64,000 nt of DNA, taken from IMG/VR virus record IMGVR_UViG_3300023171_000009, positions 9,113-73,112 of that record; one strand, written 5' to 3'. The translations under genes and the position numbers were made by a program. The DNA comes from a virus. Shown piece by piece: positions 308 through 6,469 of the stretch (the stretch's first letter is position 1; every line of letters starts with the position of its first letter). A model generated the notes under the pieces. The model was not told where the DNA came from. It worked only from the letters and a program-made list of their open reading frames with translations, and did no database searches.

Positions 308-3175
308 TTATCCTCTTGAAACACTCTTTCTTCTTTCTGCTTTTTGCCGTCCGGTTTTGCTGTCCACTTTTTCTTTTTCAGTCCAGCTTACTCTCTGTCC
401 TAGTAAAACGGTATAAACTCCACAAATTGCATCCGCAACGTCCTTGGATGTAACTGGACCGCTTGACGGATGATCTATCTTACTAGGCTTCTTCTTGAAA
501 TCCGGAACTAACGCTAGCAACTCTTTAAATCCAATTTCATTGACTGGACAAGCCACACGTTTTTGATGAAGGGCGGATCTTAGTGCATCATAAGTTACCA
601 AATCTTCAACACTTATTTTATCGGTTTTAAAACCTTTACTGACAAGTATCTGCCTGGTGTCCACAGACTGGAAATTATCCATAGTTACAATCTGGATAGG
701 TATTTTCAAAACGTCTCTCAGATAATAAACCCAATGTCTTATGATATCGATATTAATTTGCCCGGACTTAGGTGGTTGAACGGCTAATGCAAAATCATAA
801 ACGACATACGGAAAGGACTCTTCCACAAGCTTTAAATTTCCATCAGAATCAATAGTTGATGATTGTATAGGAACAACATCAAGGACGAATCCGCATGCTA
901 TGCCTACCCGATCTTGTGATAAAGCCAAATCGATATGTAAAGCTCTTGGACATTCAGGCCATGGAGTGGCGTAATCATCAGTTACTTCCGGCATTCCATC
1001 ATCAAATAAAGTTACAGTTTGTTTCCATGGAGAAATCATTCCTAGGGCTTTCCAAGCTTTAGCCATATTCCAAACGTCTTCACGATCTTTAAAGTAGACG
1101 TTAGAACTTCTAGCGCTTCTTCCGCCAAAATCGCGAAGCGCCCCCTCCGGGTCTGTTATAAAATGTTGTTTATATCTTACAGGAACTTCCATTATCTCAG
1201 CTCCTTTTCTAGGAGTTTCATCTGTGGAAAGTATACGCGTCATCGCCCTTTCATCCCCTACTTGGACTTTGAATTTTTGCTCTGTTTCCAATGTGGAGTC
1301 AGGATAAACTTCCCAATGCGCCTTCTCCCAAATAAATACCTTATGAGTGTCCTCAGTATTATCAGCAGCTAATACTTCTTTTTTTCTAACTTCTGTAAAG
1401 TCTCCCGCATGTCCTTTGGAAGACACCATGCAAAACCTTCCTATATCGGAATCAGGGAAACGGCTTGCTCTACGGCGTATAAGCTTTTTATAAACTTCTT
1501 TAGCTTGGTCAAATTCCCCCGTCTCCTCTTTGGACCTTTTAGACTTCTCAACAAAAGTCATGAAATTTAACTCATCGACAATTGCCGATATAACGTCTTC
1601 ACCTAAAAATTTATCAGCACTTGCGGCACCATACATAATCATAAGATTATGAGGAAACAGCATCATTTCTTCTTTGCGACGATTATATGGGAATTGTTCT
1701 TTAAAGTAAGGGCAGCGTTTTATGATGTTTTTTAGCTTTCCGTAAGTTACGCGCTTAGCCAATGAATCTGTTTTATTCAAACATAAAACCATAACGGGAG
1801 AACCAGGAAGCATTCCTAGGTAGAGTTGAGGTTGTTTGAAAGTAGATAGGTTATATAGATCGTAAAGAGTAACAATTTGTGCTAGGGTCGTTTTTCCGCA
1901 GTTCCCTGTTATAAATATATTTCCCTCACGTCTTAACACTAGTAATCCGGTGTTTACCCTGAAACAATATTTAAAGCCATCTGTAGATGGAACTCTTAAT
2001 ATATCTGACTTAGGAGTTGCAGCCATACTAGTTAGTGCATTCTTAGCCTTATGCACTATGTAATCTGTCTTACCGTCATCGCGAAGGTAACCACGCAATG
2101 AGGCTCTTTGCCCTAAAGTCGAAAAAGCATATTGTATAAAATCAGCCGAATCTTTATTTCGAGTATAAAAGGTTTGATCGGTTACAGAACCATCCCATCT
2201 TAAGCATTCATCACATATAATAACTAATTGCTCAGAAGAAGCTTGCCAGAAAGTTTTAAACGATTTTACTCTTAAAGGAGCTTCGAAATAAAATTTAACG
2301 TAACCCTCCGCTCCTTTATGCTCTTCCCAAGGGATGCCCGAGTCTTTCAATAGTATTCTTGCTCTATGTATCTTGTCTGTGCGTTTTATGTTTACAGTGC
2401 ATGCGTGACTCATCCTAGAAAAAGAACCATCTGCGATCACCATAACCATAACTCTTAAATCTTCATCGGACAATTCTAGCCCTATGTAATCAGGCACTTT
2501 AAATGTAGTCTGAAAGGAGCCTCTGAATCCGTTAGTAGAAGCGTTGTGCATTAGGGCTACTTCCTTTGCTGACTTAAATAGCCAATTCTTTTTTGCCTTA
2601 TAATAAACACGATGATCGTCGCATAGCATTTGGTCTATGCCATACTTAGTCTTAAAATGCCACATTTCAGCACAAGGCAATTTTATGTATTCTTTAGGAA
2701 TAACATAGTTTATCTCTTGTGTTACCGGGTCATATTCTGCAACCCTCTCTCCAGCATAGCTAGATATTTTTCTCCATCCATCAGGAGTTAAATATTCAGT
2801 CTTACTATCTACACAGCCGATCCCGCCCATTAACAGCGCCTCCATGTATCCACCGTCAGCAATACTTACAGCGGCCTCTAATACTTTTGCAAATACGCCT
2901 TGCTGTGGCGTAGTTTTATTTGACTTATCGGTTACAACGTCAAGCCCTAAAAAATCCTTGTCCCGGACAAACTGTTCCATTGAAACAGGGCGATGGCTTC
3001 TCCCGATAACACTAGCAAAATTCCCCTTCGCTTTTTTTAAATCATCTATGAAATCTGTAAACGTGGGTATGCTAAAATTAGGATTAGCTAATACAAGTTC
3101 TGATATTGCTTGATTAAGTATATCAGCAGGAGCGTTTGCTATAGCTAGTAATTGAGATTCCGTAAGGACTGCCAT
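308..3175 (-). CDS. terL: Terminase large subunit (intein-containing)
   Basis: Walker A GGIG/CGKTT split by intein, Walker B IVDE, C-terminal RNase H-like nuclease (HIDLA, MDNFQS, KDVADA). Start moved to ATG 3175; the track's TTG start lies inside the 14-bp site. Confidence 0.92.
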   Translation of the reverse strand: MAVLTESQLLAIANAPADILNQAISELVLANPNFSIPTFTDFIDDLKKAKGNFASVIGRSHRPVSMEQFVRDKDFLGLDVVTDKSNKTTPQQGVFAKVLEAAVSIADGGYMEALLMGGIGCVDSKTEYLTPDGWRKISSYAGERVAEYDPVTQEINYVIPKEYIKLPCAEMWHFKTKYGIDQMLCDDHRVYYKAKKNWLFKSAKEVALMHNASTNGFRGSFQTTFKVPDYIGLELSDEDLRVMVMVIADGSFSRMSHACTVNIKRTDKIHRARILLKDSGIPWEEHKGAEGYVKFYFEAPLRVKSFKTFWQASSEQLVIICDECLRWDGSVTDQTFYTRNKDSADFIQYAFSTLGQRASLRGYLRDDGKTDYIVHKAKNALTSMAATPKSDILRVPSTDGFKYCFRVNTGLLVLRREGNIFITGNCGKTTLAQIVTLYDLYNLSTFKQPQLYLGMLPGSPVMVLCLNKTDSLAKRVTYGKLKNIIKRCPYFKEQFPYNRRKEEMMLFPHNLMIMYGAASADKFLGEDVISAIVDELNFMTFVEKSKRSKEETGEFDQAKEVYKKLIRRRASRFPDSDIGRFCMVSSKGHAGDFTEVRKKEVLAADNTEDTHKVFIWEKAHWEVYPDSTLETEQKFKVQVGDERAMTRILSTDETPRKGAEIMEVPVRYKQHFITDPEGALRDFGGRSARSSNVYFKDREDVWNMAKAWKALGMISPWKQTVTLFDDGMPEVTDDYATPWPECPRALHIDLALSQDRVGIACGFVLDVVPIQSSTIDSDGNLKLVEESFPYVVYDFALAVQPPKSGQINIDIIRHWVYYLRDVLKIPIQIVTMDNFQSVDTRQILVSKGFKTDKISVEDLVTYDALRSALHQKRVACPVNEIGFKELLALVPDFKKKPSKIDHPSSGPVTSKDVADAICGVYTVLLGQRVSWTEKEKVDSKTGRQKAERRKSVSRG
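1901..2815 (-). mobile_element. Intein with LAGLIDADG-type endonuclease, 305 aa
   Basis: Begins CVDSKTEYLTPDGW, ends GNIFITGN followed by extein Cys; internal VIADGSF and LRWDGSV blocks. Confidence 0.9.
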
Positions 3176-3191
3176 AAAATGAAATCGTTGC

Positions 3192-3229
3192 AAAAAAGAA
3201 ACCGGAGTTAGGAAAACCCCAACTCCGGC
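3192..3229 (-). terminator. Rho-independent terminator upstream of terL
   Basis: CCGGAGTT/AACTCCGG stem followed by U-tract on minus strand. Confidence 0.8.
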
Positions 3230-4679: not shown

Positions 4680-4925
4680 TTATCTAATATTTTTGCCTAA
4701 ACTTCCGCAATTTGAATCCGAATCGACTTCTAAATACTTGATAAAGAAGTTCAGAAATTCATGCCCTAAATCACTTAAGATTTTGCCTGTTGCTTTACAG
4801 GAACCGCACCAACTCCAATCTTTTTGTTCTCTGCTCTTTCCAAGAAAAAACCCTCCCTTACCTTGGCATACAGGGCATTCTGTCTCTAAATGATCTAAAT
4901 TAAGTTGTTTTTTTGCATCACTCAT
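4680..4925 (-). CDS. Small zinc-finger protein (CXXCXGXG type)
   Basis: CPVCQGKG...CGSCKATG; start refined to MSDAKKQ. Confidence 0.65.
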   Translation of the reverse strand: MSDAKKQLNLDHLETECPVCQGKGGFFLGKSREQKDWSWCGSCKATGKILSDLGHEFLNFFIKYLEVDSDSNCGSLGKNIR

Positions 4926-4962
4926 AAAATTATACTTCGTTGTCTTTTTCCCACTCTTCAGT

Positions 4963-5139
4963 TTATTTGAAAGTTGGACCATCGAAAGTTACGCCGCAAT
5001 ATGGGCAAAACTTTGGTGGTTCAATTTCATAATGCCGCACATAAAAATTATTTTTACATATCGGGCAACTAATGGCACTAACATCAAACTTCCGGCCTGT
5101 GGAGCTTGTGTACTCGAATTTTTCCGGCTCCCCGTCCAT
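4963..5139 (-). CDS. 58-aa zinc-ribbon protein (not in ORF track)
   Basis: Hand translation MDGEPEKFEYTSSTGRKFDVSAISCPICKNNFYVRHYEIEPPKFCPYCGVTFDGPTFK. Confidence 0.75.
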   Translation of the reverse strand: MDGEPEKFEYTSSTGRKFDVSAISCPICKNNFYVRHYEIEPPKFCPYCGVTFDGPTFK

Positions 5140-5163
5140 GGTCTAAAGTATTTAAAAATTGTT

Positions 5164-5248
5164 TGGCTGGCATGACAGGACTTGAACCTGCATAGCAATT
5201 AAGCTGACTTACGTTTAGTCTGGAATACCAATTCTCCTTCACATGCCA
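5164..5248 (-). tRNA. tRNA-like gene with long variable arm and non-canonical anticodon loop
   Basis: 7-bp acceptor TGGCATG/CATGCCA, G73, encoded CCA, T-arm GCAGG-TTCAAGT-CCTGT, D-loop AATTGGTA, variable arm AGC-TTAATT-GCT; anticodon arm GACT-AAACGTA-AGTC. Confidence 0.75.
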
Positions 5249-5257
5249 AAAATTGTG

Positions 5258-5655
5258 CCACCCGCCTTTACTAAACTATATAGAACGTTCCACCGACTAT
5301 ATTGTTATTAAGTTTATTTTAAAGGCGGGTGGTCTTTGTCTCTTCTTTCATATACCATTCAATGTCTGTGATCCGCCACAGTGCTATTTTAAGGTAAGCT
5401 ACATAGTGCTTGAAATTTTTCAGGCCAATTGTTATAAGTTGCGCGGCTTCCTTTACCGCAATGCTTTTTGCTTTCTAGGTTGGCCAGTGGTCGGGCTTCG
5501 CCCCGCTGCTATAAGAATGTCAACTACATAGTGCTTGAACGGTTAAGGGTTAAAAGCTACAAATATCTAAGTTTTTTCATAAGGGCTGTGTTCGTGCTAC
5601 GCCACGATGCTATGAGTAACTACATTGGTTTAGAAGTTTAACCTTCTGGTTGAGG
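5258..5655 (-). ncRNA. Candidate ~400 nt structured non-coding leader RNA with three repeated hairpin units
   Basis: No credible ORF; three ATGTAGYT...ATAGCA-stem-GCGNAK-stem units with different but pairing stems; 13-bp inverted repeat at 5258-5332. Confidence 0.6.
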
Positions 5656-5660
5656 TTTAA

Positions 5661-5688
5661 AATGTATCCAAAAATGAGTTAAAGGCAA
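5661..5688 (-). promoter_or_regulatory. Promoter TTGCCT-N16-TACATT driving the ncRNA/tRNA region
   Basis: Hexamers; 14-bp site 8 nt upstream of -35. Confidence 0.65.
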
Positions 5689-5728
5689 CTACTATTTTGC
5701 AACGATTTCAAAAAGTCTCCTTAAATTC

Positions 5729-6103
5729 CTAAAAAAGATGCCTTACAGAACCATTTCTCACAAGTGCTTGTGCGAAGGTTAATCCGCCTCCATGGTCGTT
5801 TTTAATAACGCTGCAAGGGCCGTAGAGGCTCCATCCCTGCCTCATAAGAGAGGAAACTTTCTCGCTAAGCGGGGCGGAAAAATTACCAACTACCATAGTG
5901 TATTCAGGTAACATAGGCGGGGCGTCTTTTAATGGGTGCGGAGAGGCTTTCGCTTTACCGACCATTAGCTTTAATACCACGTCTACAAACTCTACAATAT
6001 CCTCTTTAGTGTGCGTGTATTTACGGTCCCTAAGTTCTTGAAATACAATCAAAAGATCCTCCGCTTCTTGATCCGTTAGGTTATTTAATCCTGGAGTGTC
6101 CAT
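5729..6103 (-). CDS. DUF1737-like domain protein
   Basis: C-terminal ...VSSLMRQGWSLYGP...FAQALVR resembles DUF1737. Confidence 0.55.
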   Translation of the reverse strand: MDTPGLNNLTDQEAEDLLIVFQELRDRKYTHTKEDIVEFVDVVLKLMVGKAKASPHPLKDAPPMLPEYTMVVGNFSAPLSEKVSSLMRQGWSLYGPCSVIKNDHGGGLTFAQALVRNGSVRHLF

Positions 6104-6127
6104 GTTTTTATTAGGTTAGGTTGTTGA

Positions 6128-6469
6128 TTACTCTGATAAACCGCATTTTTCATCAATTATTTGGAAGCTTCTCTTAAGGTGCTCTATAATTAAAGGCGAT
6201 ATCAATTTAAAGACGTGATAATCGACCGCTGTTTTAAAAATAGAATTAATTTCTTCATAAAACCGTTTATTCTCTTCCTCTATCTCTCTATAAAGGACGC
6301 CTTTTATCTCTTTCTTGTGCTCGTTAATCTTTAACTCTTTAAGATTAGGAATAACACAAACTTCATGGCCTTGCACAACAGAAGATGCATAGATTGTTGT
6401 TTGGGTAGTGATCATTACTCCATCTGGACCACATGGAGTAGTGTTTGTCTGATAAACAAGCTTTTGCAT
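6128..6469 (-). CDS. Hypothetical protein
   Basis: ORF in packed array. Confidence 0.65.
   Translation of the reverse strand: MQKLVYQTNTTPCGPDGVMITTQTTIYASSVVQGHEVCVIPNLKELKINEHKKEIKGVLYREIEEENKRFYEEINSIFKTAVDYHVFKLISPLIIEHLKRSFQIIDEKCGLSE

Follow-up and report, generated by a model that had tools for sequence, protein, structure and literature searches.

Three paralogous modules of ~55 bases, each joining two conserved sequence boxes to a small hairpin, lie on the minus strand of an intergenic region (positions 5140-5728) of an uncultured tailed phage, where they form the cores of 96-125-nt periods. Boxes and hairpin loop are conserved, the stems carry compensatory changes, no ORF is present and the modules occur once in the genome. 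Tentatively, the modules are read as a binding site, repeated on RNA, for a single protein that recognizes both sequence and shape, and we infer that they are transcribed, fold in vivo, meet a protein partner and have an effect.

The window, i.e., the whole stretch of 64,000 nucleotides that was analyzed, is part of a 98,476-bp IMG/VR virus record with an estimated completeness of 89%. Genes in the record include those for a tail sheath, a tape measure, PolA, a DnaB-type helicase and a DnaG-type primase, and all called genes of the 98-kb record are on the minus strand. According to ORF lists and Pfam, the whole locus is located in a gene-free gap of 590 nt (5140-5728, minus strand), flanked upstream by a 124-aa DUF1737 ORF (5729-6103) and downstream by a 58-aa zinc-ribbon ORF (4963-5139). 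Downstream of the gap, this zinc-ribbon ORF, a 100-aa ORF with a DnaJ-type zinc finger, a 142-aa DUF7239 ORF and others form a run of small ORFs, which is followed by a near-consensus promoter and terminator pair and then by the terminase gene; the modules are situated ~2 kb upstream of that pair. The flanking ORFs gave weak zinc-finger matches only in Pfam and include no candidate RNA-binding protein. The 100-aa ORF (4680-4982, minus strand), two genes downstream, carries its zinc finger as CXXCXGXG and has a sub-threshold match to Anti-TRAP (PF15777; 26.7 bits vs. a cut-off of 32). The 58-aa ORF gave weak Lar-like matches.

Direct reading of the sequence located the three repeat units on the minus strand at the places that had been reported by the sequence-only reading, together with the conserved boxes, the conserved loop and the compensatory stem changes described there. 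In each module, box A (TTCAAGCACTATGTAG) is followed by a spacer of 6 or 11 nt, box B (ATAGCA), a 5-bp stem with the hexaloop GCGNAK, and AC. Module 1 (5592-5635, minus strand) scores 73.9 bits with a covariance model of the units. Its box A, at 5635-5620, is degenerate (TTCTAAACCAATGTAG) and includes ATGTAG at 5625-5620; the 6-nt spacer and ATAGCA at 5613-5608 follow. Its hairpin (5607-5592) consists of TCGTG (5607-5603), the loop GCGTAG (5602-5597) and CACGA (5596-5592). Module 2 (5491-5539, minus strand; 88.1 bits) contains box A TTCAAGCACTATGTAG at 5539-5524, an 11-nt spacer and ATAGCA at 5512-5507; the hairpin (5506-5491) is built from (G)CGGG (5506-5502), the loop GCGAAG (5501-5496) and CCCG(A) (5495-5491), with GGGC-GAA-GCCC as an alternative register. 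Similarly, module 3 (5366-5414, minus strand; 88.0 bits) has box A at 5414-5399, an 11-nt spacer, ATAGCA at 5387-5382 and a hairpin (5381-5366) made of CTGTG (5381-5377), the loop GCGGAT (5376-5371) and CACAG (5370-5366).

Likeness between the units is above chance, with local alignment scores of 33-47 vs. maxima of 25-32 for shuffles. The covariance model scored its own copies at 74-88 bits (E ~1e-13 to 1e-16), high by construction, and returned only the three copies when run on the whole 98-kb record. Box A agrees at 16 of 16 positions in copies 2 and 3, against about half of the positions in the spacer that separates it from box B, and loop and box B are invariant in 3/3 copies, the most diverged copy 1 included. 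The complete 96-125-nt periods are weakly alignable outside the cores too, which points to a tandem triplication of the 96-125-nt period with a core of ~50 nt far better conserved than the rest. A by-eye count on the alignment gave ~33 invariant columns of ~45 in the core vs. ~10 of ~60 in the period flanks. On the plus strand, T is well above A at 5410-5500 (AT skew down to -0.63), so the linkers between the modules are A-rich on the minus strand.

Such a triplication might also be a neutral relic, a segment of ~100-125 nt that was copied twice and is now decaying without function; we regard this as a rather unlikely account of the locus. The conserved blocks would then be due to recent gene conversion or uneven decay, and intrastrand template switching in an inverted repeat might have produced the "compensatory" changes in one mutational step. 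An origin by tandem duplication does fit the alignability of whole periods. It is less easily squared with the strong concentration of conserved positions in the core, next to flanks that are almost down to noise, with a 16/16 run at ~55% identity, which is unlikely (~0.003 by rough calculation), or with the invariance of loop and box B in three copies, one of them as diverged as copy 1. Moreover, a useless stretch of 590 nt would rarely be kept by a phage genome.

Folding of the modules bears on both accounts. In the 5-bp stem (P2), pairs 1, 2 and 4 differ on both sides yet stay paired (3/5 pairs), and 14 of 15 cells pair vs. 27-47% in slid registers. The shuffle control was marginal, 22 of 500 shuffles reaching the observed value, and n = 3 paralogs would not allow a better outcome. 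When the three units were submitted to RNAalifold, two helices, P1 and P2, were predicted unaided, P2 being the hairpin of the sequence-only reading. P1 pairs CUAUG with YAUAG and is built from the 3′ part of box A and from box B; since it is invariant, it offers no test by covariation. A closing helix P0, between box A and the 3′ flank, was not significant. The folding energies of the units showed no gain over shuffles (z ~0), as RNA or as DNA and on either strand, and the module hairpins are weak (-4 to -7 kcal/mol). Hairpins no more stable than shuffles, marginal covariation and the orphan state of the element in the collections searched all agree with a decaying relic. Because all stem pairs are Watson-Crick, the hairpin is silent on strand and molecule type. 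The pattern had earlier been called the signature of a selected structure: the copies do look selected, and the claim, which rests on three paralogs in one genome, is not established because no homolog was present in any collection searched.

Coding readings were rejected on either strand, and the differences between copies had no third-position bias (by hand). No minus-strand ORF of at least 30 aa was present in 5243-5728, and two plus-strand ORFs (92 and 57 aa) had no family match, which bears out the earlier statement that the region holds no credible ORF. A weak sigma-70-like promoter candidate, TTGCCT-N16-TACATT, was read directly at 5661-5688 on the minus strand; with 8/12 consensus positions it falls below the promoter scan, which lists sites of at least 9/12. 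No terminator-like site was found on the minus strand in 4800-6200, hence none between the upstream gene and the modules. The discrete RNA of ~400 nt that had been proposed downstream of this promoter is not established, given a promoter (5688-5661) of only 8/12 and the lack of a canonical terminator. The modules are nevertheless expected in minus-strand RNA, as all called genes lie on that strand and no terminator-like site follows the upstream gene.

Further signals were noted around the gap. Directly after the stop of the 124-aa ORF (5680-5722, minus strand), a strong Shine-Dalgarno sequence, AAGGAGA, is followed after 5 nt by a TTG-started mini-ORF of 10 codons ending in TAA, which overlaps the candidate -35 element of 5688-5661. 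Read on the plus strand, box A of module 3 supplies a TTGAAA, which 17 nt separate from TATAAG (5410-5438; 10/12, last position G), a possible antisense promoter opposing every gene; a short hairpin and a T run follow. The idea that the motifs are genome-wide promoters was rejected, as they occur only at this locus and fit no sigma-70 spacing.

Under the RNA reading that we favor, the minus strand would be transcribed by read-through from the upstream genes, perhaps also from a weak promoter of the region's own. Each module of ~55 nt would then present a single-stranded 16-nt box A, the weak helix P1, a CA linker and the 5-bp helix P2, whose sequence is free to vary around a fixed hexaloop G-C-G-N-A-K; in two copies, a cross-loop C-G pair could leave a G-N-A pseudo-triloop. 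Three copies 96-125 nt apart would allow multivalent binding, and the whole may act in cis as a platform for processing, protection or read-through into the long hairpin, the tRNA-like RNA and the genes preceding the terminase. Alternatively, the modules might serve as a sponge. Fixed linear boxes, a fixed loop and a free stem are the pattern of protein-binding RNA hairpins such as nut boxA/boxB, coat-protein operators and the iron-responsive element (IRE). For this reading speak the clustered core conservation, the 16/16 box A, the covariation of P2, the expected presence in minus-strand RNA, the lack of ORFs and family matches on either strand, the RNA-like neighbors and the A-rich linkers. 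Against it stand the small number of paralogs (n = 3), the 22/500 shuffles, folding energies equal to those of shuffles, the invariance of P1, the missing homolog, the Watson-Crick-only stems and the GCGNAGC sequence in two loops, which is known for DNA rather than RNA hairpins.

The RNA-like neighbors follow directly downstream. A very stable hairpin of 75 nt (5258-5332, either strand; -32.5 kcal/mol, z -5.2, 0/200 shuffles) has perfect GC-rich 13-bp arms around a 49-nt AT-rich, self-pairing interior and is equally stable on both strands. Within this hairpin, the minus strand has a promoter-like TTTAAA-N16-TATAGT at 5323-5296; 5 nt beyond the stem begins a run of T5, just before a tRNA-like gene. 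This gene (5164-5248, minus strand) has an encoded CCA and matched RF00005 at 28.4 bits vs. a gathering score of 29. Its acceptor, D and T arms are good and its anticodon arm is odd (4-bp stem, loop AAACGUA); ARAGORN called no tRNA gene at the locus. The match is unique to 5164-5248 within the 98-kb record, and the 3′ half of the gene had no exact match in IMG/VR or GTDB genomes. In addition, a 30-nt direct repeat, 70% identical, is shared by the end of the upstream gene (5713-5742) and the start of the tRNA-like gene (5230-5259); both copies contain GGCA..TTTTT..AAGGAGA, and the likeness may be due to chance.

The complementarity of ATAGCA to TGCTAT in the tRNA-like RNA had been offered as possibly coincidental; at 6-7 nt it is at chance level by a rough estimate. 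An antisense or target role was rejected as well, since complements to the units of at least 9 nt on the transcribed strand (9-11 nt) were at chance level only. Likewise, a tRNA or pseudo-tRNA array was discarded, as no unit matched the tRNA model even at E<=10, ARAGORN returned nothing, and the units did not align to the tRNA-like locus above chance. A bolder form of the RNA reading, to which we give little credence, would see here a new phage non-coding RNA operon of no described family. Its three two-hairpin modules, with their fixed pseudo-triloop, would titrate or recruit a protein of host or phage; produced jointly with the stable hairpin and a tRNA mimic that does not decode, they would form a cassette for takeover or counter-defense based on RNA.

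Relatives of the modules were sought in RNA families, viral records, genomes and metagenomes. With Rfam 15 at the gathering threshold over the 64-kb window, the units matched nothing, ROOL, GOLLD, ribozymes and riboswitches included; at E<=10 over 4900-5900, the only meaningful match was the tRNA at 5167-5248, outside the units. The earlier remark that no known RNA family was recognized thus stands at both thresholds. A strict pattern covering all three units gave 0 matches in the viral, genome and metagenome collections (IMG/VR, GTDB, JGI), a looser pattern gave 6 chance matches in metagenomes, and CACTATGTAG-N8-16-ATAGCA in IMG/VR gave 50 matches that were single, hairpin-less and attributed to chance. 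No link was found to the TGTGTAGC motifs at 42.7 kb.

For the 124-aa and 142-aa neighbor proteins no relatives were found in IMG/VR, and a set of 5.8 billion proteins contained no relative of the 124-aa protein. At the DNA level nothing in INPHARED matched, and PolA identity to the nearest cultured phages is only 33-36%. The two nearest true terminase relatives (L114 and L115) are 45% identical at most, and their loci contain neither such a module nor an Rfam match; in five whole viral records the module was not found either. Another 61 loci fetched with the terminase proved not to be phage relatives, as they had matched a mobile intein-like insert of ~320 aa, so the module search in them was uninformative. 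That insert occupies residues ~116-440 of the 961-aa terminase large-subunit ORF (308-3193, minus strand) and is 40-47% identical to segments inside RtcB, SNF2 and DEAD helicases, DnaB, clamp-loader/AAA proteins and RecA, as is typical of inteins that carry a homing endonuclease.

Should the modules function as RNA, a phage lineage that branches deeply would have a repeated hairpin motif, not described before, in association with a tRNA mimic, and the motif would be a lead on how phages use structured RNA beside tRNA-like genes. At present they have the status of a well-defined orphan motif with testable alternatives, not of a demonstrated new system.

The earlier note had left open whether the structure acts as RNA or as single-stranded DNA, and this ambiguity still stands, as two of the loops carry GCGNAGC. 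The modules could accordingly act as DNA, as the direct repeats of an origin of replication, of a site of priming or of some other site where proteins assemble on DNA, a possibility that we take seriously without thinking it probable. The boxes would be read on the duplex, the hairpin would be extruded or formed on single-stranded DNA and recognized by a primase or polymerase, and the AT-rich segment between the 13-bp inverted repeats would be an unwinding or cruciform element. A long non-coding gap that contains 49 bp of AT-rich DNA, a perfect inverted repeat of 13 bp and three direct repeats recalls classical phage origins such as lambda ori; the repeat spacing (96-125 bp) is far wider than in classical iteron origins. 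The long hairpin, equally stable on both strands, suits a DNA element, and primase (DnaG-type), helicase (DnaB-type) and PolA are all encoded by the phage. Conversely, no initiator gene adjoins the locus, the neighboring ORFs being without initiator-like domains, and GC skew is unchanged across 4-8 kb, a weak test with all genes on one strand.

More specific support comes from the loops, which in modules 1 and 2 read, with the closing C, GCGTAGC and GCGAAGC, i.e., the DNA mini-hairpin heptamer GCGNAGC. This mini-hairpin, exceptionally stable as DNA and much less so as RNA, has been reported at the primase origins of G4, St-1 and alpha3, at RSF1010 ssiA and in the N4 hairpin promoters (PMC13037366). 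The primase signals (G4, St-1 and alpha3; RSF1010 ssiA/ssiB) resemble the present locus in being non-coding and in having GCGNAGC or GCGNNAGC mini-hairpins, and the phage has a primase. They differ in that no module with common flanking boxes is repeated there, and their action is on genomes that are single-stranded or on strands of plasmids.

The early promoters of N4, three in number, consist of a GC-rich heptamer flanked by inverted repeats in which non-conserved bases need only pair (PMC4496689), the same pattern as found here: three copies, a GCGNAGC-type heptamer, variable pairing flanks and conserved bases beside the hairpin. However, N4-type promoters call for a 5-7-bp stem in register with the heptamer, a 3-nt loop and a central purine (PMC4496689), whereas the flanking stem of modules 1 and 3 is offset from the heptamer by one base, so that a bulged G is needed. 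Moreover, the closing C-G pair of the heptamer is lost in module 3 (GCGGATC), and the loop center of module 1 is T where N4 needs a purine. An in-register form is possible in module 2 only (GGGC-GAA-GCCC, 4 bp). With the hairpin on this strand as template, synthesis would be antisense to all genes, and this phage bears a sheath. A giant virion RNA polymerase gene is lacking, the largest ORF being 1164 aa in the 98-kb record (estimated 89% complete); a T7-like polymerase (PF00940) gave no match, though the control of that search gave no signal and the record lacks 11% of the genome. No sigma factor was found in the record. Should the modules nevertheless act as DNA, the range of GCGNAGC mini-hairpin initiation sites, so far N4, plasmids and small phages with single-stranded DNA, would come to include a large phage with a contractile tail.

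Under the favored RNA reading, the modules can be compared with lambda-type nut sites, which share the linear conserved box, the short spacer, a 5-bp stem of free sequence, a fixed loop, here purine-rich, and the occurrence of more than one copy per phage. That the modules are themselves a nut-type cis-acting control site, where box and fixed-loop hairpin load an antitermination factor before the late-gene region, appears quite improbable, even if their place ~2 kb ahead of the promoter and terminator pair before the terminase would suit such a role. The boxA consensus, CGCUCUUA or UGCUCUUUA, is absent from the units, and the GCGNAK loop has 6 nt and is not a GNRA-like pentaloop. There are three tandem copies within 300 nt vs. 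one per operon, and, unlike at nutL and nutR, no terminator lies between or just after them. No N-like protein was found among the neighboring ORFs with Pfam and PHROG; arginine-rich N-type antiterminator peptides are too short and too diverse for such scans.

Other repeated elements were compared as well. In type III antitoxins (ToxI-like), with which an analogy had been drawn, a non-coding unit is likewise repeated in a phage-related context. ToxI repeats are contiguous, of equal length (~36 nt) and placed directly before the gene of a toxin of the ToxN/AbiQ endoribonuclease type. The present repeats have periods of 96-125 nt with unrelated spacers, and the downstream ORFs of 58, 100 and 142 aa matched only zinc fingers and DUF7239, none being ToxN-like, so the analogy fails. 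CRISPR-like repeats or solitary repeat units, which would be near-identical over 28-37 nt and keep one stem sequence throughout, were rejected, since stem sequence varies from copy to copy and the periods (96-125 nt) exceed those usual in CRISPR arrays. An attP site with a tRNA-derived core and arm-type sites was rejected too, as the record has no tyrosine-integrase match.

The IRE offers a last parallel. Its hexaloop is bridged by a C-G pair, so that three bases are left for a protein to read, and modules 1 and 2 can similarly form C2-G6 and so expose G-N-A as a pseudo-triloop. Module 3 differs, as its C faces a U and cannot make this pair. The unpaired base is here on the 5′ side, and there is no sequence relation. 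By analogy, then, the three modules would work like the known "box plus hairpin" recognition sites, yet they belong to none of them.
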